In this document: positions 2,478 through 34,081 of the stretch, one piece after another
Numbering within the stretch: position 1 is the first letter of the stretch
How the letters are laid out: every line of letters starts with the position of its first letter
Source of the DNA: Acidobacteriota bacterium
GTDB taxonomy: Bacteria; Acidobacteriota; Terriglobia; 2-12-FULL-54-10
Reading direction: 5' to 3'
DNA length: 64,000 nt
Assembly (NCBI GenBank): GCA_016191085.1
Contig: JACPPJ010000070.1
Coordinates: 6,123 to 70,122 of the forward strand
Made by a program: the position numbers and the translations under genes
Notes under the pieces: generated by a model
Told to the model about the DNA's origin: nothing
The model's database searches: none
What the model saw: the letters and a program-made list of their open reading frames with translations, nothing else

Positions 2478-2638
2478 AAGCTAATGACCCACTGCCGAAC
2501 TGAGTCGTTTCCTGAACGGTCTGCCTCTCCCCAATGATCGACTTCTTGGGCGGCTGCTAAGCTATAATCACATCAGACCAAGCGCAGAGAAGTGTACACC
2601 GGATCAGATGCTTCCTGAAACTGCTTAGGTCTGTCGAT

Positions 2639-3193
2639 TTGGGGCAAGAAGTTTGGTTCGATTGCATGGTTTTCTTTTCGGAAAGGAGACCTGGTATGCG
2701 GGGTACAGGAGGGCGCGAATGGCTAGCGTGGGGCGATTCTAGGATAGTTGACGATGGTGCGAGGCGCGAGCTTTCAACCAAGGGAGCATTGCTCGAAACA
2801 TTGGATATCCTGATTGCAGAAGCGGTGAAGTTCTCCGACACGTCCAGGACAACAATGATCGGTGAGTTAATCGGTCTGAAGAATCGGGCACGTTATTGTC
2901 TCGCCGACCTTGGACCAGACGCTCGTGACGCCTTGCGTGTGAGTGCGGAAATTAATTTTCCGAAGGCCTCAGAACCAAAATTCGAGGAGCAATGCTACGA
3001 GCTTGTGGATCAGTTACGGCGCGTTCTGGAATCAGTCCGAAGCAAAATCGAGAATCGCGTCCCATTGGTACCTAACCGAACTAAAGTGGGGATGGCGAAG
3101 AAAACTAGAGCAAGGAATCAATCTCCCTTTGCCTACTCCGATGAGGACCACAGGCTATACGACTTGATCGGTCCGTCGGCGGGACATTTTTGA
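2639..3193 (+). CDS. hypothetical protein (start uncertain; an internal ATG near 2696 is possible)
   Basis: Long ORF, co-directional with the downstream element genes, no recognisable motif. Confidence 0.35.
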   Translation: MGQEVWFDCMVFFSERRPGMRGTGGREWLAWGDSRIVDDGARRELSTKGALLETLDILIAEAVKFSDTSRTTMIGELIGLKNRARYCLADLGPDARDALRVSAEINFPKASEPKFEEQCYELVDQLRRVLESVRSKIENRVPLVPNRTKVGMAKKTRARNQSPFAYSDEDHRLYDLIGPSAGHF

Positions 3194-3236
3194 CGAATGG
3201 ACATTTGCGACCGACCCGGCCAACTTACAACCCAAG

Positions 3237-3533
3237 GTGCGCCCAGCCTTGCGGAAAGCCGCCGAACACCTCAGAAAATATCCTCCAGTAGGAATGACGC
3301 AAGAGGAAATAGATCGCTTAGTGGAAGCCATAGAAGCCCCGTGGGGCAACCGAATCGAGAAGCAAATCCGGGAGGCAATGGAATCACCAGACGGTACAGC
3401 GGCCTCCATAGCGGTTGCCGAGACCGTGAAACGCCTCGGCCTGGAGCCTTTCAAAGCCCCTGATCCTCTGCCTCCCATCGAGCCGCAAGACATCAAGCTG
3501 ATTTGCTGGCTGGCAGTGGATACGGCGAGTTAG
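3237..3533 (+). CDS. hypothetical small acidic protein (GTG start)
   Basis: 98-aa ORF with protein-like composition (MTQEEIDRLVEAIEAPWGNRIEKQIREAME). No homolog recognised. Confidence 0.3.
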   Translation: MRPALRKAAEHLRKYPPVGMTQEEIDRLVEAIEAPWGNRIEKQIREAMESPDGTAASIAVAETVKRLGLEPFKAPDPLPPIEPQDIKLICWLAVDTAS

Positions 3534-3733
3534 GGACTTTCCCGACCTGAATTGGCGAGGGGCACCATGCCCTGCTGGAGTCCAGAACTGGACGGTAGCT
3601 TGGGGAGAGGGGCAGAATCGCAGACTCAGCCCGCCGCTTGTGAGAACATTTCCTTCCTCTCGGGGAATGCGTACAATGTGCTTCAAAGGGTCGGCTATCC
3701 TTTCCGTCCAAATGACCCAACAATCTGGTAAGC

Positions 3734-4189
3734 GTGGGGCAACCGATCATGGACCACCGGGACAAGATCATCGCCGACATTGCGGAAAGGGAATGCAGGC
3801 GCGTCTCTCGGAAAGTCATTGTCGCCCTCCAAAAGATGACCGAAGGTATGCAGTCAGGAGATGGCTCCATTCTCAAGAATGTCTGGGATGAGGTGTGCGT
3901 CCAAGTCCAGTTTCAGCAATCGGTAATGTGGGATGCCTACCTTGAGACCATCAGCACGTTTATCGGGGGCGAAGTTGAGGGACTGGATGCTTTACAAAAG
4001 CAAGCCATTTGGCTCCAGACTGACAACGGAATGGAGTGGGAGGCGGAAAACGAGGGCGAGGGAACAGTTACATTCTGCGAGGACGATATCACCGAATACA
4101 TACTCCATAAGTTTGTGCTGTCGGCGGCTGCCGATTGGACCAACAAACGCATTGAGAAATACCTTGCACTCTTTATTGAATTTGATTGA
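3734..4189 (+). CDS. hypothetical strongly acidic protein (151 aa, about 28 D/E vs 14 K/R)
   Basis: Clean ORF. Composition recalls DNA-mimic anti-defence proteins. No motif recognised. Confidence 0.45.
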   Translation: MGQPIMDHRDKIIADIAERECRRVSRKVIVALQKMTEGMQSGDGSILKNVWDEVCVQVQFQQSVMWDAYLETISTFIGGEVEGLDALQKQAIWLQTDNGMEWEAENEGEGTVTFCEDDITEYILHKFVLSAAADWTNKRIEKYLALFIEFD

Positions 4190-4303
4190 TCGCCCAACTA
4201 TCGGCGGCGGCGGAGTATAGGTCAACGCACTGAAAAGTGACTGCATCCCCAAGCCGCCTGCTGCCGGTCTATTTTTATTCGGGAACCGGCGCGGGAGACG
4301 GGA

Positions 4304-5482
4304 TTGGCCAAGCAAACCCAGAAACAAATCGGGTACAGAATCGAGGATATTCGCTGGCTTTTCTGGCAAGTCCTTCGGCGATCTCCGAAATACCGGAAAT
4401 CAGTGGCCCGTCTTCTTAGGCTTTGGCGTAAGGATTCCAAGCTCAGGCCATGGAAGCCAGGGCTGACAGATAACCAGCGGGAGTGGCGACGGCACAAAGC
4501 ACATGCAGCTCAGGCAATGTTGCGAGCGTATAAGGGGTTGCAATTCGGTGAGATAAAACTATCTGCCGAGCAGTCCGACCTAAAGTTTGAATGGGGCAGC
4601 CTGGATCTAGAAAGCTTCTCGCAGCTAGAGCGTACAGGGGTGGTTCCCAGGCGGAGAGGAGATCGCAAGAAAGGGTCTTACCACGCAGAGGTTTTCCGGG
4701 CAGGCAAGAGAGCAAAGCCGCGTGGTACAGAGAGATTCCAGAGGGGCGTCCATCGGACGATGACTGAATTGGAGTGCATTACGAGCAAGGCTCTTCGTTC
4801 TCGCTATTACACACCAGGAACGGGGAAAACTGCGGTGGAAATACTTTTCTCCAGGCACCGAAAGGACGCGTTACCCGAACTGGAAAACTTCACGCGTCGC
4901 TGGAAGATGCGCTTCCCTGTACCTCCCTCCATAGAAGTGCCGCTAGAGCATGATATGACGAGCCCTTGGGCGTGGCCAGTAGTGATTCGTCATTTGAAAC
5001 TCACCGAAACCTTAGTCCTGGAAATTAGACCGGAAATTGGAAAAGGGATTGTTCTAGCGTTTATCGGTGGCGCAGTCTGGCACAGCATGAAGAAACGTCG
5101 AGACGGCACCATGCTTACGTCTCGCAAGCATGGACAAAAACGAGAGATGCATGTCAGTAAAAAATCCAACCACCAACTCTTGGTAGAAATCTCGCTCCCG
5201 GCTAACAAGGAAGACGTGTTGCGGGAGGTAGATAAGCATTTGGCCATCCACTCGCCCCACTTCCAGCTTGCTGAGAAACCTGATAAAAAGATTTCCCTCG
5301 ACAGAGAGTATTACGCGTTGATGTTCCAGGCTATTGATCTGCGGAAACGCGGGAAACGCGGTCTGAAGTTGGCAGACATAGCCGCAAGGTTCTGGCCGGA
5401 CCGTCAGAAGGATGCCCGCTCGGTTCGTGACCTTGCGGTAGCTTTCTCTGAACTCGCAACCAGATTTGACATCCCCCGGTAA
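4304..5482 (+). CDS. hypothetical basic protein (392 aa)
   Basis: Long ORF rich in K/R, no recognisable domain. Part of the element gene set. Confidence 0.45.
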   Translation: MAKQTQKQIGYRIEDIRWLFWQVLRRSPKYRKSVARLLRLWRKDSKLRPWKPGLTDNQREWRRHKAHAAQAMLRAYKGLQFGEIKLSAEQSDLKFEWGSLDLESFSQLERTGVVPRRRGDRKKGSYHAEVFRAGKRAKPRGTERFQRGVHRTMTELECITSKALRSRYYTPGTGKTAVEILFSRHRKDALPELENFTRRWKMRFPVPPSIEVPLEHDMTSPWAWPVVIRHLKLTETLVLEIRPEIGKGIVLAFIGGAVWHSMKKRRDGTMLTSRKHGQKREMHVSKKSNHQLLVEISLPANKEDVLREVDKHLAIHSPHFQLAEKPDKKISLDREYYALMFQAIDLRKRGKRGLKLADIAARFWPDRQKDARSVRDLAVAFSELATRFDIPR

Positions 5483-5523
5483 TTCCTGCCTTTACCTGCC
5501 CCCAAACTTCCGAATGCAATCCG

Positions 5524-5745
5524 TTGCAAGAGGAATACGCTTGCCTCATGCAGCACACGATATTTTTGACAACTTCCGAAGCCGCTAAAATTCTGCGCCT
5601 CACGCCGGCATCGGTAAGGGCATTGGAACGATCGGGGAAAATGAAGGCGCTCCGAACTCCCTCCGGGGTACGCATCTTCCGACTGGAGGACGTTCAACGT
5701 TTCTTAAAGGATCGTGAAGCGCACCGCGAGGGTAGAGGCAAGTGA
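5524..5745 (+). CDS. HTH_17 / excisionase-family (MerR-like) DNA-binding protein
   Basis: LTTSEAAKILRLTPASVRALERSGKMKALRTPSGVRIFRLEDVQRFL matches the excisionase-family HTH pattern. Confidence 0.6.
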   Translation: MQEEYACLMQHTIFLTTSEAAKILRLTPASVRALERSGKMKALRTPSGVRIFRLEDVQRFLKDREAHREGRGK

Positions 5746-5797
5746 TGGAGTGCGTTGCGATGCTCCAAGGCAACCGATCATACGTCGAGGTGCTTTA

Positions 5798-6895
5798 ATG
5801 CGTAACTACGCGATGATTTCTCCACTGTTTTGGATTGACGAGACCGGTAAAAAGCTCCGCCGTGCGGGAGAGGGAGTTCAACTGGTCGCCCTCTACTTAA
5901 TGACCTGCCCGGCAGCAAATATGTTGGGCCTCTACTACCTCGCACTCCCAACGCTCTGCCACGAGGTCGGGAAGGACAAAGAGGAAGTTTCGAAGGCTTT
6001 GAAAATCCTCTCTGATTTAGGGTTTGCTCACTACGATGCCGAAAGCGAGTATGTGTGGATACCGGAAATGGCCCGGATTCAGATCGGGCAAACGTTGAAG
6101 GTCGGGCAAAGGTTGAAGGCAGGCGACAAGCAGCGAGTCGGTATCGAGAGAGAACTTCAACAGATCAGGAGCAAGAAACTTGTCAACTTATTCCTGGAGC
6201 GGTACGCCGACGATTTCAATCTTGAAATCGAGACGGAGTCTGACCGCCACGGAGGGTTTAACGGAGGAGAAGATACCCCATCCGAAGGGGTAGCAAATCT
6301 CGCAGAACCCCTCTCGAAGCCCCATCGAAGGGGTACGAATAACTCCGCGAAGCCCATTCGAAGCAAAGAACAAGAGCAGGAGAATTACCAGGAACAGGAA
6401 CAAGAACAAGAATTTATTATGAAGGGGGAGTGTGAGGGGGAAACCAATTTCAAAAATGGTGGAAGCAATCCCAGGAAAAAGCCCCCGCAAAAGCGGGGAC
6501 CCCATTCTTCTTTTACAAAGTCCAGAACTGGGCATCCCGTCATAGACATGAACCAGGATGTAATTTCCTGGATGGAGAAAACCGGCAGGGAGTCCGGGAA
6601 GCGGTGGACGTACAGCAAGGACAAGCGGAAGAACCAAGGGCCGACTCCGGGGATGGAAGCCGAGATTCAGGAGAAGGACCGCACCGACGGGCCGTTCTTT
6701 CGCCCCGCGTGGTTGGATTATCTCCAGACGGACAGTGCGCGGACGGAGCGGTATCCGTACCGGAATTTTCTGGAGGGGTTCTGGCAACGCCGGTTGTCGG
6801 AGTTGGCCGAGGCGCAAGGGGCCGTGGAGCACGCGGCGAACATGGCGCGGTGGAAAGCTAAAGCACAGATTGGCGAATTACCAGAGGAGGGCTGA
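5798..6895 (+). CDS. putative replication-initiator / replisome-organizer-like DNA-binding protein with QEQEQE low-complexity linker
   Basis: The N-terminal region (LVALYLMTCPAANMLGLYYLALPTLCHEVGKDKEEVSKALKILSDLGF) resembles winged-helix replication-organizer N-domains. The ORF-track start at 5714 overlaps the upstream gene, so ATG 5798 is preferred. Confidence 0.4.
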   Translation: MRNYAMISPLFWIDETGKKLRRAGEGVQLVALYLMTCPAANMLGLYYLALPTLCHEVGKDKEEVSKALKILSDLGFAHYDAESEYVWIPEMARIQIGQTLKVGQRLKAGDKQRVGIERELQQIRSKKLVNLFLERYADDFNLEIETESDRHGGFNGGEDTPSEGVANLAEPLSKPHRRGTNNSAKPIRSKEQEQENYQEQEQEQEFIMKGECEGETNFKNGGSNPRKKPPQKRGPHSSFTKSRTGHPVIDMNQDVISWMEKTGRESGKRWTYSKDKRKNQGPTPGMEAEIQEKDRTDGPFFRPAWLDYLQTDSARTERYPYRNFLEGFWQRRLSELAEAQGAVEHAANMARWKAKAQIGELPEEG

Positions 6896-7124
6896 GGGTT
6901 TGTCAAGAAAACACCCAACGGTCGAGGAATTAAACCGCAAGCGGGAGAACATCGCTAAGCAGCGCGGAATTGTCCGCATCAGCATCGAGGACATTATGGA
7001 GGCGCGGGCCTATAAGCACGGATTCGATGCGGCCAGGGTTTCTGGTGCGAGCGCGGTGAGTGCATTCCGAATCGCCAAGGGAAGGACCCGACGTGGCGAC
7101 TGAGATGTAGCGGATGACGGCAAG

Positions 7125-7355
7125 GTGTGGAATATGAATTATCCCCAGGGCGATTTTTCTGCCCGTTATTTTTGCCGGGGCTGCGGCGAGCCACTGGTGG
7201 GCGGGGAACCGCGTGACTTCCATCCCGATTGCCTAAAAGCCGACAAGCGTCGCCGGACGAGGGAAAAGCGCCTCCGCGAGAGAACCAAGTTTCAAAGCTG
7301 GCTGCGGCGGCAGATGTGCCCCCATTGCGGCGGGAAGTTTGGCAAGCCGGGATAG
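7125..7355 (+). CDS. small zinc-ribbon protein (CxxC...CxxC), basic C-terminus
   Basis: CRGCGEP...HPDC...CPHCGGK cysteine pairs. Confidence 0.35.
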   Translation: MWNMNYPQGDFSARYFCRGCGEPLVGGEPRDFHPDCLKADKRRRTREKRLRERTKFQSWLRRQMCPHCGGKFGKPG

Positions 7356-7497
7356 AAGCTTCCGATGCTGCGAGGAATCTGCCTGTGAAGCTTCACACAG
7401 ACCGTCACTCGTGGAACTGGATGTCGTGCCAGTGAATGTCTTGACGAACCGGCTGCGGCAACGTCTAAAGAACGGCCTTGAGCTTGGACCGAAAAGC

Positions 7498-7932
7498 ATG
7501 AGTATGAACTCAATCCCGAAGTTGAGCGAGTTGCTGGAGCAGCCGGAAAAGGTGTCCACGCTGCCCTTGGAAGCGGTCCCGGCGTTGCGGGGCAAGCTCG
7601 CCGAGTTGGACACGCTGCTACAGATGCGCGTGGCGATGGCCCAGAGCAACGGCTCTATTGTCCCGGTTCCGCTCGCTGGACAGCCTGAGCTAATTGACTC
7701 CCCGGAACTGGCAAGGCGATGGAGCGTGCCGGAGTCCTGGGTACGGGATTGTGTTCGCAATCGGAGCGGAGACCCTATCCCTTGCGTCCGGCTTGGGAGA
7801 TACGTCCGTTTTGAATGGGGCTCGCCGGACCTGGAGGCGTGGTTTGGTCGCCGAAAAAGCGGGGCTAATTCCAAGCCGGAAGGTAGAACAAGAAACCGCT
7901 TGACAAGGCATCCTATTTCGGTTTATCAATAA
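7498..7932 (+). CDS. HTH_17 / AlpA-excisionase-like DNA-binding protein
   Basis: The C-terminal LIDSPELARRWSVPESWVRDCVRNRSGDPIPCVRLGRYVRFEWGSPDLEAWF fits the excisionase-family HTH. ATG 7498 or 7504 is preferred over the ORF-track start at 7339. Confidence 0.5.
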   Translation: MSMNSIPKLSELLEQPEKVSTLPLEAVPALRGKLAELDTLLQMRVAMAQSNGSIVPVPLAGQPELIDSPELARRWSVPESWVRDCVRNRSGDPIPCVRLGRYVRFEWGSPDLEAWFGRRKSGANSKPEGRTRNRLTRHPISVYQ

Positions 7933-7936
7933 TAAC

Positions 7937-8143
7937 ATGGGGCGAAGAAAAGCAGGACGGCCTAAGAAGAATCCCGAACACCGGCATAGCAAGTGGGTCA
8001 TGATCCGCCTGACACCGGGCGAGCATCGTAGCCTGCAAAACTACGCAGAACAGAGGGGTACTACGATGGCTGAATTCGTGCGTCACCTTGCGCTCCGCCG
8101 AATAGGGTACAGGGGCGAGTCTCGAAAGGAGGAAACAAAATGA
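7937..8143 (+). CDS. ribbon-helix-helix DNA-binding protein (MobC/CopG-like), possible Xis or regulator, translationally coupled to int
   Basis: KWVMIRLTPGEHRSLQNYAEQRGTTMAEFVRHLAL matches RHH/MobC consensus. The stop overlaps the int start (ATGA). Confidence 0.5.
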   Translation: MGRRKAGRPKKNPEHRHSKWVMIRLTPGEHRSLQNYAEQRGTTMAEFVRHLALRRIGYRGESRKEETK

Positions 8144-9315
8144 AGACTCGCCGGCAAGAAGGTCATATCTTCAAGGACGCTGGATATTGGTACGTTCGGT
8201 TTTACCAGGACGAAATCGGAGAAAGTGGGCAGATTGTGCGGCGTCAACGCGCAAAGAAGCTTGCGAGGGTCTCCGAATATCGTTCCAAAAAATCAGTCGA
8301 GCCGCTGCGAGATGAAATGCTCGAACGGCTCCAAGTCAACTCGCCGCACTACAACCCGGAAAGCACGATGACCATTGCCGGGTTTGTGAAGGAGCACTTC
8401 TTTCCGCATCACGTCTCCCAACTCAAGCCCTCGGTGCGCCCTTCCTATGAATGCAACTGGAAGAAGCACTTGGAGCCTGTGTGCGGGCAGATTCGGTTGC
8501 GGGATTTCCGAACCAGCGACGGCGAGCGTGTCATGAGGGAACTCGTGAGGCGGAACTTGGGCCGAAACACCGTTCGCCACTGCAAGAGCATCCTGAGCGG
8601 AATTTTCTCTGAGGCGATCCGCTTGGGCGTGCTCGACACCGGGAATCCTGTTCGGGAAGTCCGAATCCCGAGCAGCAAGCTCCGGCCGCCGGAAGAGACG
8701 GGTGCCTACTCGCTGGAAGAGATCACGAGGATGCTCCGCAACTTGATCGGGCCAGCCAGAGCCATTATCGCGGTGTTCGCCTACACGGGCTTGCGGAAGG
8801 GCGAAGTCGCGGCGCTCCGGTGGGAGTCTTGGCGGGACGGTGCCTTATGGGTCGAGCAATCGGCTTGGCGGACACAGCTTACCGATCCGAAATCCGTCAA
8901 GAGCAAGTCCCCGGTTCCGGTGATTGCTCCGCTGGCCGCGATTCTCTCAGAGCACCTGAACGGTCGCGCCGAAGGTCTGATGTTCAGATCAAGCAGGGGG
9001 ACTCCGCTGAACCTGGACAACTTTGCCAAGCGGACCATCCGGCCCCTACTCGAAAAACTGGGTATTGGCTGGCACGGCTTCCATGCCTTCCGCCGTGGGC
9101 TTGCGACAAACCTGAACGAGATGGGCGTTGACCCGAAGGTTGTCCAGGCGATAATGCGGCACGCCGATTTCCAGACCACGATGAATCACTACGTCAAAGC
9201 GGTCCCGGAGTCGGCAAGAAAGGCCATGGAAGGGCTCGAACGGCTAATATGCAGCCAGTATGCAGTAGAAAAGGACCTGGACCGTTGCGAAACTCCCGTA
9301 ACTCGCTTAAACTAA
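8140..9315 (+). CDS. int: tyrosine-type site-specific integrase (intact, 391 aa)
   Basis: Catalytic residues in context: AYTGLRKGE (Arg), HAFRRGLAT (His-x-x-Arg), MRHADFQTTMNHY (Tyr). The gene ends 6 nt before tRNA-Arg. Confidence 0.9.
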   Translation: MKTRRQEGHIFKDAGYWYVRFYQDEIGESGQIVRRQRAKKLARVSEYRSKKSVEPLRDEMLERLQVNSPHYNPESTMTIAGFVKEHFFPHHVSQLKPSVRPSYECNWKKHLEPVCGQIRLRDFRTSDGERVMRELVRRNLGRNTVRHCKSILSGIFSEAIRLGVLDTGNPVREVRIPSSKLRPPEETGAYSLEEITRMLRNLIGPARAIIAVFAYTGLRKGEVAALRWESWRDGALWVEQSAWRTQLTDPKSVKSKSPVPVIAPLAAILSEHLNGRAEGLMFRSSRGTPLNLDNFAKRTIRPLLEKLGIGWHGFHAFRRGLATNLNEMGVDPKVVQAIMRHADFQTTMNHYVKAVPESARKAMEGLERLICSQYAVEKDLDRCETPVTRLN

Positions 9316-9321
9316 AACCAC

Positions 9322-9399
9322 GCGCCTGTAGCTCAGTCTGGATAGAGCGTTGGTCTCCGGAACCAAAGGTCGGAGGTTCGAATCCTCTCAGGCGCGCCA
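9322..9399 (+). tRNA. tRNA-Arg (anticodon CCG)
   Basis: Cloverleaf: acceptor GCGCCTG/CAGGCGC, anticodon loop CTCCGGA, T-arm GGAGGTTCGAATCCTCT, discriminator G plus CCA. Near-identical to E. coli argX. Confidence 0.9.
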
Positions 9400-9502: not shown

Positions 9503-9841
9503 CTAGCTGGTTCTCCCGACCGCCTCTTGCTGGATCGCAATGACGGTCTGTTGTTGCTCCTGTTGCTTTGCTACGGCCTGTAGATACTGCTGGGTCTTGA
9601 GCAAGGCCTCCTGCTGGTCTCGCTCGTCTACGATGTCGTACCGGGTGAAGATGGAGCGGGTACGATGACCCAGAACCATCATGCAAACGTCTTCTGGGAC
9701 ACCGGCCCGGCGCATATCACGCGCCCTGGTTCGCCGCAGATCATGGAACAGTTTCTTGACCCCGGCATTCTTGCAAGCCGTTGCCCAAGCCTTACGGATG
9801 TCTCCAACCGGCGCGCCGGGCGCACTGTGCCCCGGCGACGT
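9503..9841 (-). pseudogene. C-terminal fragment (about 113 aa) of a second tyrosine integrase, N-terminus deleted
   Basis: Minus-strand frame reads ..[59 protein letters not shown] (HxLRHT, LGH, Y motifs). The frame opens directly after a stop at about 9842 with no N-terminal domains. Confidence 0.7.
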
Positions 9842-26939: not shown

Positions 26940-27026
26940 GCGGATGTGGCGGAACTGGCAGACGCGCTAGATTCAGGTTCTAGTGCCCTAACGGGCGTGG
27001 AGGTTCGAGTCCTCTCATCCGCACCA
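26940..27026 (+). tRNA. tRNA-Leu (anticodon CAG), 87 nt with long variable arm; attL of the downstream island
   Basis: Acceptor GCGGATG/CATCCGC, anticodon loop TTCAGGT, long variable arm, T-arm GGAGGTTCGAGTCCTCT, ACCA end. Confidence 0.9.
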
Positions 27027-27042
27027 ATTGATTCCACAGTAT

Positions 27043-28155
27043 TTACGCTCCAACTGCCGCCACAGTTTCAAATACCTGTTTTTCGCCGGTGTCAGTTTTG
27101 GTGCCAGTTGCTCCCGCCGTCAGTCTCTCGACTGCCTCTTGCAAGTGGGCCTCTCCAAGGTGGGAATACCGCAGAGTCGTTTCAATCCGCTTGTGTCCCA
27201 TAAGCACCTGGACGGCCCGCAAGGGAACCGCAGCCATAACAAGACGACTGGCGAAGGTATGCCGTAGATCGTGCCAGCGGAAGTTTGCAATCTTTGCTGC
27301 GGTCAGACACTCGTTGAACCAATCCTGCCTGTCGTGAATCGGAGCGCCGTCAGAGCCGGGGCAGACGTGCCCGATTGCGCCGTGAAGCTCCCGCAGCTTC
27401 AGAAGCGCAGCCTTTGCCGCAGAGTTAATATGGACGTGCCGGGCTTCCCCGTGCTTGCTCCGGGCAATGGTGATGATGCCGCGCTTCAGGTCTACGTCCT
27501 GCCAGCGCAGCCCGTATTGTTCCCCGCGTCTCATGCCAGTGTGAAGGGCAAGCTCAAACTCCGGCTCCCGCTCCGGGCAAACCTCTTTGATCTTCTCCCG
27601 CAGCGCGGTTTCTTCTTTCTCATCCAGGAAGCGCACCCGCTCGTTGTTTTCGGTGAGCGGCTTCACCTGCCGGACAGGATTCGAGGACACCTTGCCATTG
27701 CGTATCGCCAATGAGAAAACCAAGCTCAGAAGCGCACGGTAGCGGTTCAGGGTTGCGGGCTTGCGTCCGTCTTCGGCAAGGGCGTGGAGCTTGCGTTCAA
27801 TATCGTGAGGCAGAATATCCGCCGCCGCACGCTCGCCAAACCAGTCTTTCAGGGTTGCCATGTGCCAGCAGTCAATGCGGTACGCTTCCGGCACCTTGCG
27901 CGCCTCGCAGTGTTCGAGCGCCTCATCTGCCATTTTGCTGAAGGAAACATGCACGTGCCGCAACTTCTCGGGCAATTTCTTCCGTTGGAGCACTTCCGTT
28001 TTGCGCTTGCGGTATAGAGTCTTTGCCGCTTCTTTTAACCCGGCCTTCTCCCGATGAATCCGCCCCGTAGCATCGGCATAGCGAACCCACCAAACATCCG
28101 AGCCGGGCACCTTCTCGTAAATTCCGCGTATTTTCTTCGCTTCCTTCTTAGCCAT
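27043..28155 (-). CDS. int: tyrosine-type integrase (intact)
   Basis: R..HDLRHT..LMGH..TLRY catalytic motifs. Convergent on tRNA-Leu, ending 16 nt from it. Confidence 0.9.
   Translation of the reverse strand: MAKKEAKKIRGIYEKVPGSDVWWVRYADATGRIHREKAGLKEAAKTLYRKRKTEVLQRKKLPEKLRHVHVSFSKMADEALEHCEARKVPEAYRIDCWHMATLKDWFGERAAADILPHDIERKLHALAEDGRKPATLNRYRALLSLVFSLAIRNGKVSSNPVRQVKPLTENNERVRFLDEKEETALREKIKEVCPEREPEFELALHTGMRRGEQYGLRWQDVDLKRGIITIARSKHGEARHVHINSAAKAALLKLRELHGAIGHVCPGSDGAPIHDRQDWFNECLTAAKIANFRWHDLRHTFASRLVMAAVPLRAVQVLMGHKRIETTLRYSHLGEAHLQEAVERLTAGATGTKTDTGEKQVFETVAAVGA
27088..27110. promoter_or_regulatory. putative arm-type recombinase binding repeat (GGTGTCAGTTTTGGTGCCAGTTG), paired with a near-identical copy at 33396..33418
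   Basis: A 23-nt sequence with 2 mismatches lies in direct orientation just inside attL and just inside attR. Confidence 0.35.
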
Positions 28156-28372
28156 GTTTTTTCGGTTCCTTTCCAGCCGTAGCACGTCGTTTCAAAGTCT
28201 TTCTGTGCCCCTGAGCGAGCGTGTGCAACGCCAACGCAAGCATAGAGGGAATTTTGCGGGTGCCAGTCTCCCAACGCGCAACGGCAACCCTGTGGACTCC
28301 GAGGGCGGACGCGAGCTGTTCCTGAGTCATTCCCAGCTTGTCGCGAATCACTCTAAGTTCTTCCGGGTTCAT
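28148..28372 (-). CDS. XRE-family HTH transcriptional regulator
   Basis: LGMTQEQLASALGVHRVAVARWETG is a canonical XRE/Cro-C1 HTH. Confidence 0.6.
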   Translation of the reverse strand: MNPEELRVIRDKLGMTQEQLASALGVHRVAVARWETGTRKIPSMLALALHTLAQGHRKTLKRRATAGKEPKKHG

Positions 28373-28518
28373 GTAGCCAATGGTTACATACAGAGAGATG
28401 GATGTCAAGCGGAAATTTCGCAGATCACGCTAAAACCCTTTCGGGCTGCGATCCCTACAATGGTGTTATACTGCTTTCGCAATTATTCCGGGTTCTTGAA
28501 ACAGGCCGGAAGCCGGAA

Positions 28519-28806
28519 TCAGCCTTTCTTAACCGTCCGTGCTCGATCCAGTGCGCGTTCGATTTGTAGCAGAACTTTCGAGGGTTTCACGCTTAGCGTT
28601 GCAGAGATATTGAAAATCGTGCGAAGGGAAGGACTCTTCTGCCCATTTTCCAGCAAGCCGATGTACGTCCGATGGTATCCGCTCTTGTCGGCTAACCATT
28701 GTTGAGATTTTCCCTGCTTGCGCCGGATTGCCCGCACAACAAAACCAAAAGCAAGTTCCGGCGTGGATAACCTCTCCGTCTCATCGGTACGCTTCAGCCT
28801 GCCCAT
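28519..28806 (-). CDS. XRE-family HTH transcriptional regulator (repressor candidate)
   Basis: IRRKQGKSQQWLADKSGYHRTYIGLLENGQKSPSLRTI is an XRE HTH. Confidence 0.65.
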   Translation of the reverse strand: MGRLKRTDETERLSTPELAFGFVVRAIRRKQGKSQQWLADKSGYHRTYIGLLENGQKSPSLRTIFNISATLSVKPSKVLLQIERALDRARTVKKG

Positions 28807-28826
28807 AGGCAGACATCATTTCGTTA

Positions 28827-28860
28827 TTGACGACTAAAGAGTGACACACTATAGTCGTCA
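28827..28860. promoter_or_regulatory. divergent promoter/operator: perfect 8-bp inverted repeat GACGACTA-N13-TAGTCGTC with TTGACG and TATAGT hexamers
   Basis: Lies between the XRE gene (minus) and the secreted-protein gene (plus). Read directly from the sequence. Confidence 0.35.
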
Positions 28861-28914
28861 CTTGCCCGCTGATGTTGTTCTGCGAGGGAAATCAAATGCG
28901 AGAGGAGAATTCTC

Positions 28915-29769
28915 ATGCGACATATGCTGATTGCTGTGCTGCTGTTGTTTGCGTCGGTTCCCGCACATTCTCAGGGGATATCTGTGCAGGCTGCGCCAGA
29001 AGAAAAGAACACTATCATCGGTTCTTATCGCGGAGCCTATCGAAAACAAGTGTTTGTCGGCCCCACAGATCAAGTATTTCCGCACATTGCTACCGGTGGC
29101 GGCTGGGAAACGGTGATCGTGATTTTGAATATGGGAAGTGCAAGGGTGGATTTTAGGCTGCGTTTTTACGGGCAGGATGGGAGGCCCTTGGCCGTTACGT
29201 TCCGCGATTATCCAGACTTGAACATGGTCACAACGTCAGCCGCCGTAGGCTTCTTGGGTCCTAATGCCAGCTTCAACTTTGCTCTTTTCGACTCTACTCC
29301 GGACACTCGCGTAGGTTGGGCTTCCCTCGATTACGATTCCACGGGAGCGCGGATGGGAGGCTATGCAATCTTTCGCCAACGAGTACCCGGACGCCCAGAT
29401 TACGAAGCACTTGTGCCACTAAGTGCGTATGACGATTACAAGTTCTATATGCCCTTCGACAACATTCAGGGCTTTGTTACTGCTATGGCGCTGGTCAATC
29501 CGGCATCGAATCTCAGTAGCCGGATTACGATCACGGCTTTCACTCTTAGAGGGGTTGTGATAGATCGCATAGTCATTACCCTGCCGCCTGGAGGTCAGAC
29601 TGCCTTCGTACTTGCAGACCGCTTCCCTGCCTTCGCCAACACTCTCGGGACCTTGTACGTCGAAAGCGATACCACGAGAATGTCAGCGCTTGGACTTAGG
29701 TTTAATACAGCCGGCGGCAACGCGTTCTCCTCCATCCCAATCCTGAACTGGGGCGGCATGTTTCCGTAG
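28915..29769 (+). CDS. secreted hypothetical protein (signal peptide), island cargo
   Basis: MRHMLIAVLLLFASVPAHSQG signal. 284 aa, beta-rich composition, the only plus-strand gene of the island. Confidence 0.55.
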   Translation: MRHMLIAVLLLFASVPAHSQGISVQAAPEEKNTIIGSYRGAYRKQVFVGPTDQVFPHIATGGGWETVIVILNMGSARVDFRLRFYGQDGRPLAVTFRDYPDLNMVTTSAAVGFLGPNASFNFALFDSTPDTRVGWASLDYDSTGARMGGYAIFRQRVPGRPDYEALVPLSAYDDYKFYMPFDNIQGFVTAMALVNPASNLSSRITITAFTLRGVVIDRIVITLPPGGQTAFVLADRFPAFANTLGTLYVESDTTRMSALGLRFNTAGGNAFSSIPILNWGGMFP

Positions 29770-29850
29770 ACCAGATCAGTCCCCCAGCAATTTCATGCCT
29801 GTTTGGTAGCGGTAGCCCATCTATAACGACATCGGCTTTGTCAAGCATGC

Positions 29851-30162
29851 TCATTGCACCTTCCCCTGTGGCTTCCATCGCTCGAACCATTCCTTAACTT
29901 CGTGGGAAATTCGGGGCGGATGAATGTACCGGCCGCCGGAAATCGCATAGCACCCGCCACAGTGCTCCGGGCCAGGGCAGCCGGTCCGGTTTTTGATTTG
30001 ATCTGTGCGCTCAAGTGCACGTTCTTTCCGCTCCGGCTCCAGAGTGATTAAAACGGTTGCGGCTTGTGCTGACGCCTCCGTTTGCTGCGTGCCGAATCCG
30101 GCATCCCGAAGCGCCTTCAGTGCCCGTTCCACTACGTCGTTCATATGCCCGCTAACCCTCAC
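29851..30162 (-). CDS. hypothetical Cys-containing small protein
   Basis: ORF in operon orientation. CPGPEHCGGC motif. Confidence 0.3.
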   Translation of the reverse strand: MRVSGHMNDVVERALKALRDAGFGTQQTEASAQAATVLITLEPERKERALERTDQIKNRTGCPGPEHCGGCYAISGGRYIHPPRISHEVKEWFERWKPQGKVQ

Positions 30163-30283
30163 TACAACGTTTCAAACCGCAACATCCGCCACAAGGCCCG
30201 TCAGCGTTGACCAAAACGCATTTTTTCAAAGTGCAACAGAGCCGCCGTGTTGCGGTTGCGAAAAGTGCTTGAAACCAGCGTCA

Positions 30284-31495
30284 TTATTGGTTTGTGGCGC
30301 TTGTTGCACTTTCAGAACCGACATAGAGGGAAATAGCCTCTTCCAATTCCGCTTTTAAGTAGCCCTTCGGTGTCTTATCTCCGACGCGAACGCCTCTAGG
30401 CTCCGGGCCAAAGTGCTTCAGCATCCGGGCCAGTTTGTTTTGCGTCAACTCCCGCCCCGGCTCATTCCAGGGCGATACCGGCAGTGCTTTCAGCTTTGAA
30501 ACCAGTTCTTCTGACGGAACCTTCTCGTCAAAGGCAGCCAGCAGCTCTCCAATATCTGCCAGCAGTTTCAGCGGCAAGGAATCATCGGTGTCTGACTCTG
30601 CCTTTCCTTTGCTGAGGGCAACCGCTGCCTGTCTCAGTTCCGCTATCCGGCCCGGCGCGAGTACCGCACACACGGCAAACAACGACTGCCAGATTTCTTC
30701 ATTGCGGTCGCTCAAATCATCCATCTCAGGCAATTGTGAATACACCTGTGACACGTCCGCCGCTCGACGGACGGCCATTGACGCCAGCGCCGCTCGCATG
30801 GGGTCCGACTCCGTTTTTGCCTTTCGAGAAAGAAACCGTCCAACGGGTTCCCCGTTTTTGCGCCGCCGCATTCTGATGACAATGCTTCTATCGAACACGG
30901 TATCCGGCAGCGAGCCGATGGCGATGACGGCCTTCGGCCCGTAAACGCTGAAGGGCTGCAATTCATGTTTGGGTGGAACGCATCGGTACACAGAGGCACC
31001 TTGCCGGTATCCTGCATTCAGGATGCTGACGATTGCCTGTGATCGTTCGTTTCTCTTCTCTTTCAGAGCCTCCGCTTCATCTAGCAGCAGCGTGCAGCCG
31101 CCCTTGTCCACCAGCCGGAACAGTGCCGCCTCACTGATTCCGGTTGTCAGGACGGGATTCAGCGCCACACAGCCGAGCACTTCAGCCAAGCGAGTCTTAC
31201 CGCACCTCTTTGCGGGCGAGACGATGCTAAGGTACGGGAACGAGTCGAAACATTTGTATAGATACGTTGCAACCGTCCAGCACGCTAGGGGTAGAGCGGC
31301 TTTTTCCGGCAATATAAGGTACTTCGTCAGAAACGATTCCAACGCCGGAATAATTTCGGCTTCCACCAGCGCCGCCGCAGCGACGTTTGGCTTATTCCGG
31401 TACTCGTGATCCCGAGTGATTTTTTCCAGCAACACAGGATCATTCTGAATTGCACCTTCAACGGCAGCTTGCGCCGCGTAAAGATCGTTACTCAT
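30284..31495 (-). CDS. DUF3631-like P-loop protein (primase/helicase C-terminal-domain-like), replication module
   Basis: Walker A SPAKRCGKTRL and Walker B TLLLDEAE. Architecture typical of DUF3631 proteins of integrative elements. Confidence 0.55.
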   Translation of the reverse strand: MSNDLYAAQAAVEGAIQNDPVLLEKITRDHEYRNKPNVAAAALVEAEIIPALESFLTKYLILPEKAALPLACWTVATYLYKCFDSFPYLSIVSPAKRCGKTRLAEVLGCVALNPVLTTGISEAALFRLVDKGGCTLLLDEAEALKEKRNERSQAIVSILNAGYRQGASVYRCVPPKHELQPFSVYGPKAVIAIGSLPDTVFDRSIVIRMRRRKNGEPVGRFLSRKAKTESDPMRAALASMAVRRAADVSQVYSQLPEMDDLSDRNEEIWQSLFAVCAVLAPGRIAELRQAAVALSKGKAESDTDDSLPLKLLADIGELLAAFDEKVPSEELVSKLKALPVSPWNEPGRELTQNKLARMLKHFGPEPRGVRVGDKTPKGYLKAELEEAISLYVGSESATSATNQ

Positions 31496-32133
31496 GCCGC
31501 ATTCTCCCTAGCCGCAAATTCGCGGTATAGTTCCGCCGCGTTTTGCTCGAATTCGCATAGCTGCTGATAACGTGCGTCGGCGCGCTCCTGCCATTGCGCC
31601 AACACTTGCAGTTTTGTAAACACCTCCTCGCCGACAGACTGCCCGGCAGCGAGTTGCTGTTGACCGATTCGCCGCCATTCAGCTTCGTAGCGATCCAAGT
31701 CTCGTATAAGGGCTGCGCTCGCAATGCGCCTTTGTCGCGCCCACTCCGTAAATTGCTCTGCCTCACGTCGAACGATCTGACGTTGCCGCTGCTCTTCGTG
31801 GGTGTCGCGCCTTTGCTCCATGCCAAGCTCGCGGGCCAGAGTCCAGGCGTTCCCGCTCCAGCCGCATTTGTGGCAATGGAAAACTTCAGCGTTGTAACTT
31901 CCAGTCCGCCGCGCGTGGCATTCCGGGCAGTCGAACCGGCTGTTTCCGCGCAACTCCGCGCCGGCCTGCAGTAGCAGTTCCGGGATCGTCGCCGCGCTCA
32001 TGGCTCGCCTGCTGTGTTTTGTGAGTACGGCCGATTTTTTCCCGGCCCGCCGCTGCGTTCCAAGAGAGCCAGCAAGAACCGCCGATGGCCCGCCATAAAT
32101 CCCGCAGCGCGCTTGCGAAATTGCGGCGTGCAT
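31492..32133 (-). CDS. zf-CHC2 (DnaG-primase-type zinc finger) protein
   Basis: FDCPECHARRTGSYNAEVFHCHKCGWSGNAWTLAREL matches the CHC2 primase zinc finger. The start is uncertain (ORF-track start 32235 overlaps alpA). Confidence 0.5.
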   Translation of the reverse strand: MHAAISQARCGIYGGPSAVLAGSLGTQRRAGKKSAVLTKHSRRAMSAATIPELLLQAGAELRGNSRFDCPECHARRTGSYNAEVFHCHKCGWSGNAWTLARELGMEQRRDTHEEQRQRQIVRREAEQFTEWARQRRIASAALIRDLDRYEAEWRRIGQQQLAAGQSVGEEVFTKLQVLAQWQERADARYQQLCEFEQNAAELYREFAARENAA

Positions 32134-32191
32134 CGTTCGAGCGCCAGCCGGTGCAATTCTTCGAGCGTCAACCCTTCCAATTCTTCGCGCC

Positions 32192-32383
32192 TCATTGCCC
32201 GCCCCCGTTCCCCGCCGTCTCTGGGCTACGGGCAAACTTTTCCAGAGCTACCCTCGGAATTAGGGTTCTCTTTCCCAATTTCCGCGCCGGGATCTTCCCT
32301 TGCGCGATCATGTAGTCAAGGTTCCGAACCGAAATGCTCAATGCCTTTGCAGCGTCCAAACGCGATACCAAAATCTGCTCCAT
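32192..32383 (-). CDS. AlpA-family HTH transcriptional regulator / excisionase-like
   Basis: LDAAKALSISVRNLDYMIAQGKIPARKLGKRTLIPRVALEKF matches AlpA/HTH_17. Confidence 0.6.
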   Translation of the reverse strand: MEQILVSRLDAAKALSISVRNLDYMIAQGKIPARKLGKRTLIPRVALEKFARSPETAGNGGGQ

Positions 32384-32807
32384 GCGTTGTGCTCCTTTTG
32401 CTGAATGCGAGTTGTTGCTGCTTTCCACTTGTCTCCAGAAATGCGAAAAGCCCCTGAGAACCGTACTTGCGATTCTCAGGGGCCTTGATTTTCCCGGTTC
32501 CCCGGGGTCTTGGTTGTCCCTACAAACTAACGATCAATCCTGGTTTGGAGATGCGGCTCCACTTCCGCCGGATTCCCCTCTTCCATCCTCACTATAAACT
32601 CACTGGATTTTTTGTCAACTAAAAAGTTGGCTCTGGAGCTTCGCATCGCTTTCAGGTGCATCTTTGTGCAGTTCCCGTAGTTCGATATTCGCCCGCAGAA
32701 ACAGAGCCTCCTTGATCCGCCCAAGCTCTCCAGACAGGTCTCATCCGCCCAATACGGCGGGAATTAAAAACCGAGAGAGCCAACCCCCAATCACCTATTC
32801 CAGCGGC

Positions 32808-33242
32808 TTATTTCGCGTACGCCATTTCTGCCGCGAACTGTGCTTCCCACATGGCATCTAAGATTTCCTCGAATGGGACCCCAAACCGTTCCTCAATCTC
32901 TTCGATTTCTTTTTTTACCCGGCTCGTGTATTCATACACGCCCAGCCGGTTCATACATGCCACGGCGCGTCGCGCCTGCGCATAATGAAGTCCGCTGCGC
33001 AGCACCAGCATGACGGAGCGGTACAATGTCTCTGAAACATCATGCCTTAATTCCGAGAAGGCTTCCTCTCGGAGTTCTTGAATGCGATCCTGAATCTCAC
33101 CCTTTCTAACCCACTTGTATGCTCGCGTGTGGGCGGAGCGCCGAGGACATCCGCTCCTGATTGCGGCCAGCGTTCCATTGCCTGTCAAGGCGTAGTGCTG
33201 CGCAAACAATTCCTGCCTGCCCGTGAGCCTTGCTGTTTTCAT
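32808..33242 (-). CDS. terminase small subunit-like protein (Terminase_2 family HTH)
   Basis: LTGRQELFAQHYALTGNGTLAAIRSG....AHTRAYKWVRKGEIQDRIQEL fits the Terminase_2 N-terminal pattern (LTxKQexF..y...gN.t.AairAGYS...A......l......I.el). Confidence 0.55.
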   Translation of the reverse strand: MKTARLTGRQELFAQHYALTGNGTLAAIRSGCPRRSAHTRAYKWVRKGEIQDRIQELREEAFSELRHDVSETLYRSVMLVLRSGLHYAQARRAVACMNRLGVYEYTSRVKKEIEEIEERFGVPFEEILDAMWEAQFAAEMAYAK

Positions 33243-33395
33243 GTCCCTATTCTACCAAACGAAAATTTTCTGAATTTTTTTTTTGGAAAAAAGGCGGGCA
33301 ATGAATTCGAGAGAGGAACAGGGTTCCCATAGCCCTATATGCCTATTGAGATGCGGGGGACCCTACCCCCATGTGGCCCTGTCCCCCGGTTCCCC

Positions 33396-33418
33396 GGTGT
33401 CAGTTCTGGTGTCAGTTG
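33396..33418. promoter_or_regulatory. second copy of the arm-type repeat (GGTGTCAGTTCTGGTGTCAGTTG)
   Basis: See 27088..27110. Confidence 0.35.
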
Positions 33419-33543
33419 CGTTTCGGGTTTGGTGCGCTCCGCTGCGCCGCGTTGCAGCGAGACGTTGCGCTGAAACCCCGATAAACATTGGTGAATTTCG
33501 CTGTGCTGCATTTTCGTGCGCTCCCGTGCTTTTGCCCCATTTA

Positions 33544-33602
33544 TAGATTCAGGTTCTAGTGCCCGCAAGGGCGTGGAGGTTCGAGTCCTCTCATCCGCAC
33601 CA
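33544..33602 (+). repeat. attR: 57-nt direct repeat of the tRNA-Leu 3' portion (anticodon stem to CCA)
   Basis: gattcaggttctagtgcccgcaagggcgtggaggttcgagtcctctcatccgcacca differs from tRNA positions 26970..27026 at 3 positions in the variable arm. Confidence 0.8.
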
Positions 33603-34081
33603 ATACAGTCATTGAAGCTCAATGACTTGCATGAGACCACTTCCCACAGAAGCACGATCTGTGGCGTTTCTGTTCCCATTTTGTCAGGAAGCGGGGGCAC
33701 GGAAACTTTTGGCCGTTGCTCCGCGCATTGCTGCACTATTTACGCAGGTACTCCGACCGGGGTTTTCAAAACCCCTAATAGCGGCGAAACATGGCGGCCA
33801 GTCGATTCCGATCTGGCGAGTTCCCCTGGGTGTGTGGGGGTATTTTCAAGAGCACGGATGATTGGCAGAGTTGGGCGCGACCCTGCGCCGCAGCTACCTG
33901 GATGCGAGATGGATGGACGGTGGAGCCGATTAGTATCGGCTCCACTTTGAGTTGCACTATAACTGTCGAGAGGCATTGGCGAACTTATGTCGCACACCGC
34001 TGGATTTAGCTTAGCTCGGGCCGTCCTGCTCTTGCAGCGCGGCCTCCTTGCGCTGCGAACTCAAACGCTCAAGATGACTAC

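Follow-up and report, generated by a model that had tools for sequence, protein, structure and literature searches.

In a 64-kb stretch (here called, in its entirety, the window) of the 92,376-bp contig JACPPJ010000070.1, coming from an uncultured "Acidobacteria bacterium", we found a 6,576-bp island that was inserted by tyrosine-integrase recombination into the part of a tRNA-Leu(CAG) gene reaching from the anticodon stem to the 3′ end, thereby rebuilding the tRNA. The island has ten intact open reading frames (ORFs; NCBI proteins MBI2817827.1 to MBI2817836.1), which encode, among others, a replication protein of the DUF3631/RepAM type and a protein resembling the small terminases (TerS) of phages, and besides this phage-type terminase gene it appears to have no transfer machinery. 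Our preferred reading, which we hold with about even confidence, is that the island is a small integrative and self-replicating element that lives as a satellite of a helper phage of the pac type. More tentatively, we suggest that this island and its relatives could be the first phage satellites of Acidobacteriota, forming a minimal family of 6.6-7.2 kb (for intact members) built on a RepAM chassis, with a private TerS as the sole hijacking gene.

Integration into tRNA-Leu(CAG)

The tRNA-Leu(CAG) gene that served as the insertion target (26940-27026, plus strand) is intact after the insertion (ARAGORN; Rfam tRNA, 52.7 bits). A repeat search gave a 61-nt direct repeat, representing the attL and attR cores (Table 1), with 58 of the 61 positions identical (95%) and the two copies 6,576 bp apart. 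All three mismatches fall within the variable-arm loop of the tRNA (TAAC versus GCAA), a pattern to be expected from an attP and an attB with differing loops and a crossover lying 5′ of the loop, in the anticodon region. The first-pass annotation of this DNA, made by a model from the letters and a list of ORFs, had proposed an integrative element with att sites at these coordinates and near-identical 23-nt repeats just inside both ends, all of which the repeat search confirmed, with the inner pair measuring 30 nt at 90% identity (the two arm-type sites of Table 1). Each inner repeat consists of two GGTGYCAGTT decamers placed 12 bp apart. This decamer has four copies in the window, all of them in the inner repeats, against 0.19 expected, and a 22-mer of the inner repeats has two matches in the window, against none in 100 shuffles. 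In the reconstituted attP, one decamer pair lies 125 bp and the other 54 bp from the core, on either side of it and in direct orientation, the arrangement that arm-type sites of integrases have.

The predicted attB junction is ...GGTTCGAGTCCTCTCATCCGCACCAAT/ACAGTCATTGAAGCTCAATGAC (window 26994-27028 joined to 33605-33626) and the predicted attP junction ...TTTTGCCCCATTTA/TAGATTCAGG...CCGCACCAAT/TGATTCCACAGTATTTACGC (window 33530-33604 joined to 27029-27048). Exact-protein look-ups with the two flanking genes gave 100%-identical Logan contigs from runs SRR12113390 and SRR12113401, which terminate in Nextera adapter or within the perfect 30-nt stretch of the att core, while the Logan contig of the island itself (L001) terminates inside int and TerS.

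The small-terminase-like protein

The TerS-like protein matched Terminase_2 (PF03592) with 47.0 bits, above the gathering score of 26.1, over profile positions 1-66 of 141; failure against this profile had been named beforehand as grounds for giving up the satellite reading. Its N-terminal 56 residues matched the solved DNA-binding domain of SF6/SPP1-like TerS among PDB sequences (E 4.7e-7 to 1.1e-6), and in isolated phages it was best matched by TerS proteins, with 32-42% identity across the initial 70-100 residues. A structural model based on 19 homologues (predicted local distance difference test (pLDDT) 88.8) was all-helical, having a helix-turn-helix (HTH), then a 36-residue helix and then three helices. 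The seven best Foldseek matches of this model in the PDB were all small terminases, with a tight fold match for the DNA-binding domain only (4zc3, template modelling score (TM) 0.87, root mean square deviation (rmsd) 1.3 Å).

An HMMER scan of 1.84 billion cluster representatives with the TerS-like protein returned 22 clusters at E <= 1e-10 and 254 at E <= 1e-3, the latter aligning mostly over residues 5-70 only, and a back-translated pattern gave only two relatives in the JGI metagenomes. The protein is full-length, and along its whole length it is conserved, at 47-67% identity, in at least four elements that differ in their cargo. These comparisons suggest a rare lineage, in which a generic terminase DNA-binding domain is combined with a private C-terminal half conserved within the lineage.

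As for the gene contexts of relatives within this clade, one (L095) has a serine recombinase and a toxin-antitoxin pair, and another, the 10-kb metagenome contig L091, has genes for DnaB, the TerS-clade homologue, a 166-residue ORF, a 417-residue ORF and a 1,750-residue polyvalent protein. The latter, at 3568-8820 downstream of DnaB and the TerS homologue, has ddrB-ParB and LPD38 domains. L091 was considered as a helper phage and not counted as such, as its 417-residue ORF has no Pfam or PHROG match and cannot be called TerL or portal.

Sister elements in other Acidobacteriota

The TerS end of the island recurs, together with an invariant 22-nt arm motif, in four or more further acidobacterial elements, two of which are complete enough to show their gene order. 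The first (L004, in the Acidobacteria metagenome-assembled genome (MAG) GCA_016199645.1) spans 7,213 bp at a tRNA-Thr(cgt) gene with a perfect 43-nt repeat, its DUF3631 protein being 67% identical to that of the window element and its cargo unrelated. The second (L094, on a Logan contig) spans 12.4 kb, likewise at a tRNA-Thr(cgt) gene, with a 42-nt repeat. Common to both is the order TerS, HTH_17 protein, orf65, Zn-ribbon protein, Rep, cargo and int, and the partial elements L092/L093 and L099 have a chromosomal gene, a tRNA-like core, the arm motif and TerS in that order. All five elements have the 22-nt motif AACTGACACCAGAACTGACACC without a single change, just upstream of TerS; in L004 and L094 the integrase end also carries motifs of the GGTGYCAGTT type, and additional non-coding blocks between the core and TerS are conserved across the elements. 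The worry that the island might be a lone decayed copy is thus answered by relatives that keep TerS, gene order and arm sites.

Intact ORFs, conserved order and sites, and differing tRNA targets and cargo argue for a functional mobile family and against prophage debris. That the island is the remnant of a decayed prophage, of which int, some regulators, a replication gene and terS survived by chance, we regard as very improbable. It is true that DUF3631 occurs in genuine phage contigs (L086, with TerL matching phrog_38 at 8.6e-90, and L087, with a tape measure protein) and in one isolated Pseudomonas phage, and that L094 is clearly decaying, with its TerS truncated at the 5′ end and its int frameshifted. 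In the window element, however, all ten ORFs are intact and neither an att core nor an arm site is missing. Pfam and PHROGs showed no remains of structural or lysis genes, and the compact order recurs at different tRNAs, with different cargo, at 6.6-7.2 kb, which random decay would not yield.

The sister elements differ from the window element in their placement. In L004 (4116-4158 and 11329-11371), L094 (2298-2339 and 14687-14728) and L092 (about 7780-7830), the repeat corresponds to the 5′ 42-43 nt of the tRNA, the elements lie upstream of their tRNA, and the duplicated part reaches the anticodon stem-loop. The window element is placed in the opposite way, downstream of tRNA-Leu and with the 3′ part duplicated. 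One integrase lineage with its arm sites therefore works in either orientation with respect to the tRNA gene, and an island lying upstream must supply the 5′ half of the tRNA and probably its promoter as well.

Between its att-proximal leader and the truncated TerS (2611-5282), L094 carries an SOS/mutagenesis cassette with an SRAP peptidase, an S24 LexA/UmuD-like peptidase and a Y-family polymerase (IMS), and an SNase-domain gene in its cargo region matches the PADLOC candidate defence model 'SNc+LTD'. On a further acidobacterial contig (L036, 9767-12313), two DUF3631 elements lie close together, the second of which has the arm motif of the TerS family; integrase and TerS were not detected there.

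The replication module

The first-pass annotation had described a two-gene, primase-like replication module including a zf-CHC2 protein. The pairing of a DUF3631 protein with a Zn-ribbon partner stands, but the module appears to be that of a RepAM helicase-initiator and not of a primase. DUF3631 is the domain of RepAM, the replication initiator of pMEA300-type AICEs (actinomycete integrative and conjugative elements; PMC3218068). Both the Walker A (G99 K100 T101) and the Walker B (D139 E140) residues of the island protein are invariant in an alignment of 30 DUF3631 homologues. As a profile of this alignment had no match among PDB sequences, a fold search was needed, in which an AlphaFold2 model (pLDDT 87.4) gave Foldseek matches to MCM (E 2.6e-6), the archaeal plasmid protein PriRep1, SCCmec Cch and phage NrS-1 helicases, with E-values from 2.6e-6 to 1e-4. 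Motifs and predicted fold together point to a replicative helicase-initiator, not a primase. The island encodes no catalytic primase, neither a Toprim nor a Prim-Pol domain being found, while many among more than 790 DUF3631 homologues are fused to Zn_ribbon_DnaG plus Toprim, to Prim-Pol plus PriCT, or to DnaB_N.

The partner protein has a degenerate CHC2-like finger without Toprim, is kept upstream of the helicase gene and has orthologues in L004 and L094. The profile match of its Zn ribbon is sub-threshold (Table 1), and the L094 orthologue, with E 0.0012 and 19 bits, also falls below the Zn_ribbon_DnaG gathering score of 24.9. The idea of a split primase found no support, since the Zn-ribbon protein gave no significant alignment with the primase part of a fused homologue (P0008).

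A candidate replication origin is formed by the segment around the stop codon of the helicase gene: the iteron-like sequence TGTTGCNNTTTSAAA has four matches in the window, three of which lie within this segment, against 0.19 expected in the whole window, and one copy is conserved with its flank in L004.

The wider family of DUF3631 islands

A DUF3631 profile scan of the GTDB species genomes gave 80 loci (L006-L085), mostly from Acidobacteriota, the other hosts including Solirubrobacterales, Chloroflexota and Verrucomicrobiota; adding those from IMG/VR and from look-ups, 89 loci were analysed. An integrase homologue is present in 63 of the 89, and about 30 loci have a tRNA and a 23-60-nt repeat as their limits, which makes them islands of 5.4-14 kb. 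In a Pfam census of 143 ORFs from 14 of these tRNA-bounded islands, for which 25 of the 43 matched families were listed, DUF3631 and integrase were found in all 14 and HTH_17 in five, and FtsK/Tra was not among the listed families. Islands of 5-14 kb, integrated at tRNAs and carrying integrase and DUF3631, apparently make up a large undescribed family. When a hidden Markov model of the TerS clade was run against all ORFs of the 89 loci, L004 alone matched, which suggests that TerS was added within a single small branch of a large island family without recognisable transfer genes. DUF3631 is also encoded by small Streptomyces plasmids, these being AICEs in circular form, and on one of them (NZ_CP108973.1) the order is traB/traA, prim-pol, DUF3631, HTH, int. 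Cargo of the DUF3631 islands includes Sel1, Kelch, Rap1a-immunity and Gp49/HTH_37 proteins.

A proposed satellite life cycle and rival readings

In the model that we propose for a satellite, the XRE proteins would hold the island silent. Upon infection by, or induction of, a pac-type helper, the promoter at 32618-32591 would drive the HTH_17, orf65, Zn-ribbon and RepAM genes, with the transcript crossing a leader with a very stable hairpin before HTH_17. Int would excise the island together with the HTH_17 protein, RepAM would replicate it from the iterons adjoining the helicase gene, and the island TerS would bind island DNA and recruit the TerL of the helper. Concatemers of the 6.6-kb unit would then be packaged by headful into full-size helper capsids, no capsid-resizing gene being needed. 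[quoted passage not shown]

Several findings weigh against this model. No helper phage or virome copy was found in a scan of IMG/VR with TerS, and relatives of the TerS clade were absent from the GTDB species genomes and IMG/VR in a scan with a back-translated pattern. An excised circle, an attB site or a concatemer was not found, the Logan contigs stopping at the att core or in adapter. The Terminase_2 match is confined to the N-terminal DNA-binding half of the protein, leaving profile positions 67-141 unmatched, and full-length fold matches to TerS (3zqq, 7joq and 6w7t; TerS of NV1 and PaP3) were weak, with E-values of 0.4-2 and probabilities of 0.3-0.9. In none of the eight recovered contexts of TerS-clade relatives was there a TerL, portal or capsid gene, and the sole context outside an island, that of L091, is as plasmid- or conjugative-element-like as it is phage-like. 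Lack of an adjacent TerL is expected for the TerS of a satellite, yet the role of this clade in packaging remains putative. Terminase_2 was furthermore not among the 25 listed families (of 43) in the 14 surveyed DUF3631 islands, so that TerS is not required for the persistence of the wider family. Lastly, the pac site, the origin and the regulation that the model calls upon are predicted ones.

According to the main rival reading, possible though in our judgement less likely, the island is no satellite but a mobilisable or replicative island on an AICE-derived chassis that lost, or never had, Tra. It would then spread by conjugative mobilisation, transformation or vesicles, or be inherited mostly vertically, and its Terminase_2-like protein would be an HTH DNA-binding factor serving in regulation, partition or origin binding. 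In favour of this reading, RepAM/DUF3631 is an AICE initiator, the gene order parallels that of the Streptomyces AICE plasmid, and the chassis persists without TerS, judging from the surveyed 14 among some 30 related tRNA-bounded islands and the families listed for them. The sequence likeness to terminases, moreover, is limited to the HTH half of TerS, the clade TerS never adjoins TerL, and polyvalent proteins of the type found in L091 occur in conjugative elements too. This reading must, on the other hand, contend with a complete lack of genes for a relaxase, FtsK/TraB, a coupling protein or a type IV secretion system (T4SS) in Pfam and PHROGs searches of the island, and with a TerS that is conserved in its entirety within the clade and whose model, an HTH followed by a long helix of the oligomerisation type, has the layout of a small terminase. 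TerS is also found at the same end, beside the att and arm sites, in five elements, and the island already has three other small HTH regulators.

Gene content and regulatory features

Searches of the island proteins against Pfam, NCBIfam, PHROGs and PADLOC gave the assignments listed in Table 1. Nine of the ten genes are on the minus strand, the gene for the 284-residue protein alone being on the plus strand. The int, XRE pair, DUF3631 and TerS-like genes of the first-pass annotation were all recovered, while three genes, encoding the 284-, 103- and 65-residue proteins, had been missed.

Table 1. Coordinates (window positions) and supporting evidence for the features of the island.
Feature	Position	Strand	Description and evidence
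attL core	26968-27028		From anticodon stem to 2 nt beyond tRNA 3′ end; 61-nt direct repeat
Tyrosine integrase, 370 aa (MBI2817827.1)	27043-28155	-	Phage_integrase 4.3e-27, Phage_int_M 2.2e-7, phrog_1 4.2e-63
Integrase-proximal arm-type site	27082-27111		2 x GGTGYCAGTT, within 3′ end of int; repeat and motif statistics
XRE/HTH_3 regulator 1	28148-28408	-	HTH_3 3.7e-11; likely start ATG 28372
XRE/HTH_3 regulator 2 (XRE2)	28519-28806	-	HTH_3 5e-12; PADLOC Control_protein 1.1e-13
Promoter-like site TTGACG-17-TATAGT	28827-28860	+	Divergent region between XRE2 and 284-aa gene
284-aa accessory protein	28915-29769	+	Signal-peptide-like N-terminus
103-aa Cys-rich ORF	29851-30162	-	After helicase gene; recurs in 9 DUF3631 loci
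Candidate origin	30170-30316		Three iteron-like TGTTGCNNTTTSAAA copies around DUF3631 stop codon
DUF3631/RepAM AAA+ helicase-initiator, 403 aa	30284-31495	-	DUF3631 4.6e-29
Zn-ribbon protein, 169 aa	31492-32001	-	Zn_ribbon_DnaG E 0.073 (sub-threshold); phrog_47 primase 4.5e-5
orf65, conserved ORF, 65 aa	31998-32195	-	Orthologues in L004 (7.6e-25) and L094 (3.8e-17)
HTH_17/excisionase-family protein	32192-32428	-	HTH_17 2e-9; likely start 32383
Hairpin	32447-32486	-	17-bp perfect stem, U-rich tail; -37.1 kcal/mol, z -5.86
Strong sigma-70-like promoter TTGACA-16-TATAGT	32591-32618	-	11/12 consensus match only; upstream of HTH_17 operon
TerS-like protein, 144 aa (MBI2817836.1)	32808-33242	-	Terminase_2 5.4e-12, phrog_51 terS 3e-16
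Non-coding leader, arm site to TerS	33243-33389		GGGGGTAGGGTCCCCC block and A/T tract; conserved in four-element alignment
Distal arm-type site	33390-33419		Holds the 22 nt AACTGACACCAGAACTGACACC (- strand); invariant in five elements
attR core	33544-33604		Partial copy of tRNA-Leu 3′ part; 61-nt direct repeat

The integrase ORF stays open to 28185, and the end of the gene for XRE regulator 1 overlaps the start of int. XRE regulator 2 resembles the C (control) proteins of restriction-modification systems. A palindrome, TGACGACTA-N15-TAGTCGTCA (28828-28860), overlaps the promoter-like site beside its gene and is a candidate operator for this regulator; the palindromic operator of the first-pass annotation thus exists as a palindrome, but it lies between XRE2 and the 284-residue gene, away from the replication operon.

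What had been called AlpA is an HTH_17/excisionase-family gene and not Phage_AlpA. Its product reached 29.9 bits against the excisionase family TIGR01764 of NCBIfam (cut-off 28.8) and is likely a recombination directionality factor or activator. The hairpin belongs to the leader of the excision/replication operon, where it follows the near-consensus promoter and precedes the start codon of HTH_17. It may terminate terS transcription or attenuate the replication operon. As the intergenic region between TerS and HTH_17 shows no conservation between elements, the hairpin being kept in neither L004 nor L094, both hairpin and promoter are specific to the window element. The conserved leader between TerS and the distal arm site may act as a promoter, a pac site or a site for an accessory factor. 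Known RNAs in Rfam gave two tRNAs only.

As the first-pass annotation had stated, capsid, tail and lysis genes are lacking: no island ORF matched capsid, portal, tail, lysis or TerL families in Pfam or PHROGs, which also holds for the conjugation families named above. A capsid-morphogenesis gene was likewise not matched in Pfam or PHROGs, with three island ORFs having no assigned function. The only P-loop protein among the ten is the DUF3631 helicase, there being no Pfam match to FtsK_SpoIIIE.

The 284-residue protein had no family match in Pfam, PHROGs, NCBIfam or PADLOC. A homologue is encoded in a DUF3631 island at tRNA-Leu(taa) of a Bryobacteraceae MAG (L043, 14109-14930), both proteins showing a faint DUF5719 signal, and it may be a recurrent secreted cargo protein. 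The segment between Rep and int is the one that varies between elements and behaves as a cargo hotspot, with the SNase gene of the 'SNc+LTD' type in L094 and unknown genes in the window element and L004. This brings up the notion of a phage-defence or interference island, in which TerS would mainly serve as a decoy, sequestering or misdirecting the TerL of an invading phage so that packaging aborts, while the island itself is transferred little or not at all. Known satellites are indeed established to disturb helper packaging by means of TerS or Ppi-like proteins (PMC10085698). We nevertheless judge this to be improbable, as PADLOC recognised no known defence system in the window element, being blank for the 284- and 103-residue proteins, and as it is difficult to see why the island would have functions for self-replication and excision if not to be amplified for packaging or transfer.

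Genomic surroundings and significance of the island

In a search for a prophage elsewhere in the window, no phage genes were seen in the flanks of the island, where the genes are housekeeping ones, including those for M1 aminopeptidase, DinB, Ysc84, an RRM protein, aldehyde dehydrogenase and EPSP synthase. A second tyrosine integrase (391 aa, Phage_integrase 6e-18), in the 8140-9399 region, ends 7 nt before a tRNA-Arg(ccg) gene (9322-9399), just beyond which an integrase fragment (112 aa, 5.8e-8) lies on the other strand at 9506-9841. The ORFs upstream of this second integrase (2639-7932) had no Pfam match. A flanking repeat of at least 12 nt was not found at the tRNA-Arg(ccg) locus, which could hold another island or a stack of remnants. 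At 201-2477, on the minus strand, the window encodes a Cas3-type protein with HD, DEAD helicase and Cas3 C-terminal domains; a scan of the window with Tandem Repeats Finder gave no CRISPR array.

In soils, Acidobacteriota rank among the most abundant bacteria, and their phages and routes of gene transfer are barely known. In a full-text literature search, papers on phage satellites of Acidobacteria were not found, one unrelated review being returned, and the literature searched has no description of an element uniting a RepAM chassis, a private TerS lineage, a size of 6.6 kb and this host phylum. That minimal satellites may bear TerS is an established idea, and for this island the evidence is only genomic. 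If the satellite reading is true, satellites would extend to a major soil phylum, and TerS would provide a handle for finding the helper phages through their partner TerL. One integrative-replicative chassis would then be fitted alternately with Tra or with TerS, implying modular exchange between conjugative and phage-parasitic lifestyles, and the TerS-less DUF3631 islands of soil bacteria may be satellites or mobilisable elements of other kinds. Even if the island is not a satellite, the survey reveals a large and unannotated family of tRNA-integrated RepAM islands of 5-14 kb across several groups.

Comparison with known systems

The closest characterised relatives of the island TerS are those of SPP1/SF6 (Terminase_2; PDB 3ZQQ, 4ZC3), with 32% identity and the close fold match given above for the N-terminal HTH domain, a similar length and a long helix after the HTH. 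It differs from them in a C-terminal half that is off the Terminase_2 profile, in weak similarity of the core fold and in the lack of an adjacent TerL.

[quoted passage not shown] Four of the five core components of a PICI are present, namely integrase (Phage_integrase), small terminase (above the gathering score, N-terminal half), regulator and replicase, the latter two only in a loose sense: the regulation module consists of the HTH_17/excisionase-family protein and two XRE proteins, without a Phage_AlpA match where alpA/merR/stl homologues are defined, and the primase-replicase module of a DUF3631 AAA+ helicase-initiator of MCM/Cch-like fold with a sub-threshold Zn ribbon. With no capsid-morphogenesis gene and no phage structural or lysis genes found, the pattern is that of PICI 'Type B' (PMC10085698). 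The PICI or satellite blueprint seen in the first-pass annotation therefore holds for the gene content, whereas dependence on a phage is putative. The likeness extends to the arrangement, having the integrase at one end, a regulator of MerR/excisionase type, a helicase-initiator module and terS at the far end, and to a helicase fold related to SCCmec Cch. The island is smaller, however, at 6.6 kb versus a PICI median of 9.5 kb, its DUF3631/RepAM replicase lacks a catalytic primase domain, and its XRE genes are not divergent from the replication operon, unlike Stl of SaPIs. More than 99.9% of detected PICIs are from Proteobacteria or Firmicutes (PMC10085698), whereas the host here belongs to Acidobacteriota.

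In size class, and in having int, an AlpA-like gene and a replication gene without capsid remodelling, the island is also similar to PICMIs and VEIMEs. PICMI115 has 6,110 bp and is packaged as 8-mers (PMC10803314), and the marine VEIMEs range from below 5 kb to 16.8 kb, are packaged as 8-17-mers and in some cases have terS homologues (PMC9618062). PICMIs, known from Vibrionaceae, are, however, located next to fis and have a core of int, iolg, alpA and prim without terS (PMC10803314), whereas the island is located in a tRNA and has terS and a RepAM helicase; given the different site and the carriage of terS, it is not a PICMI. PICMIs and VEIMEs are, moreover, packaged in virions, the island being known from genome sequence alone.

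With AICEs of the pMEA300 type the island shares a tyrosine integrase, a small HTH Xis, a RepAM initiator and integration at a tRNA, its rep, xis and int block being ordered as in plasmid NZ_CP108973.1. According to the AICE criteria of Bordeleau and Ghinet (PMC3218068), an integrase and a replication protein (RepSA, RepAM or Prim-Pol) are present, while an FtsK/SpoIIIE Tra translocase had no match in the ten ORFs. The island, which is also without Spd genes, half the size of an AICE and from another phylum, is for want of Tra not an AICE. Its chassis of int, xis and RepAM is nevertheless that of the AICEs, with TerS in place of the Tra module.

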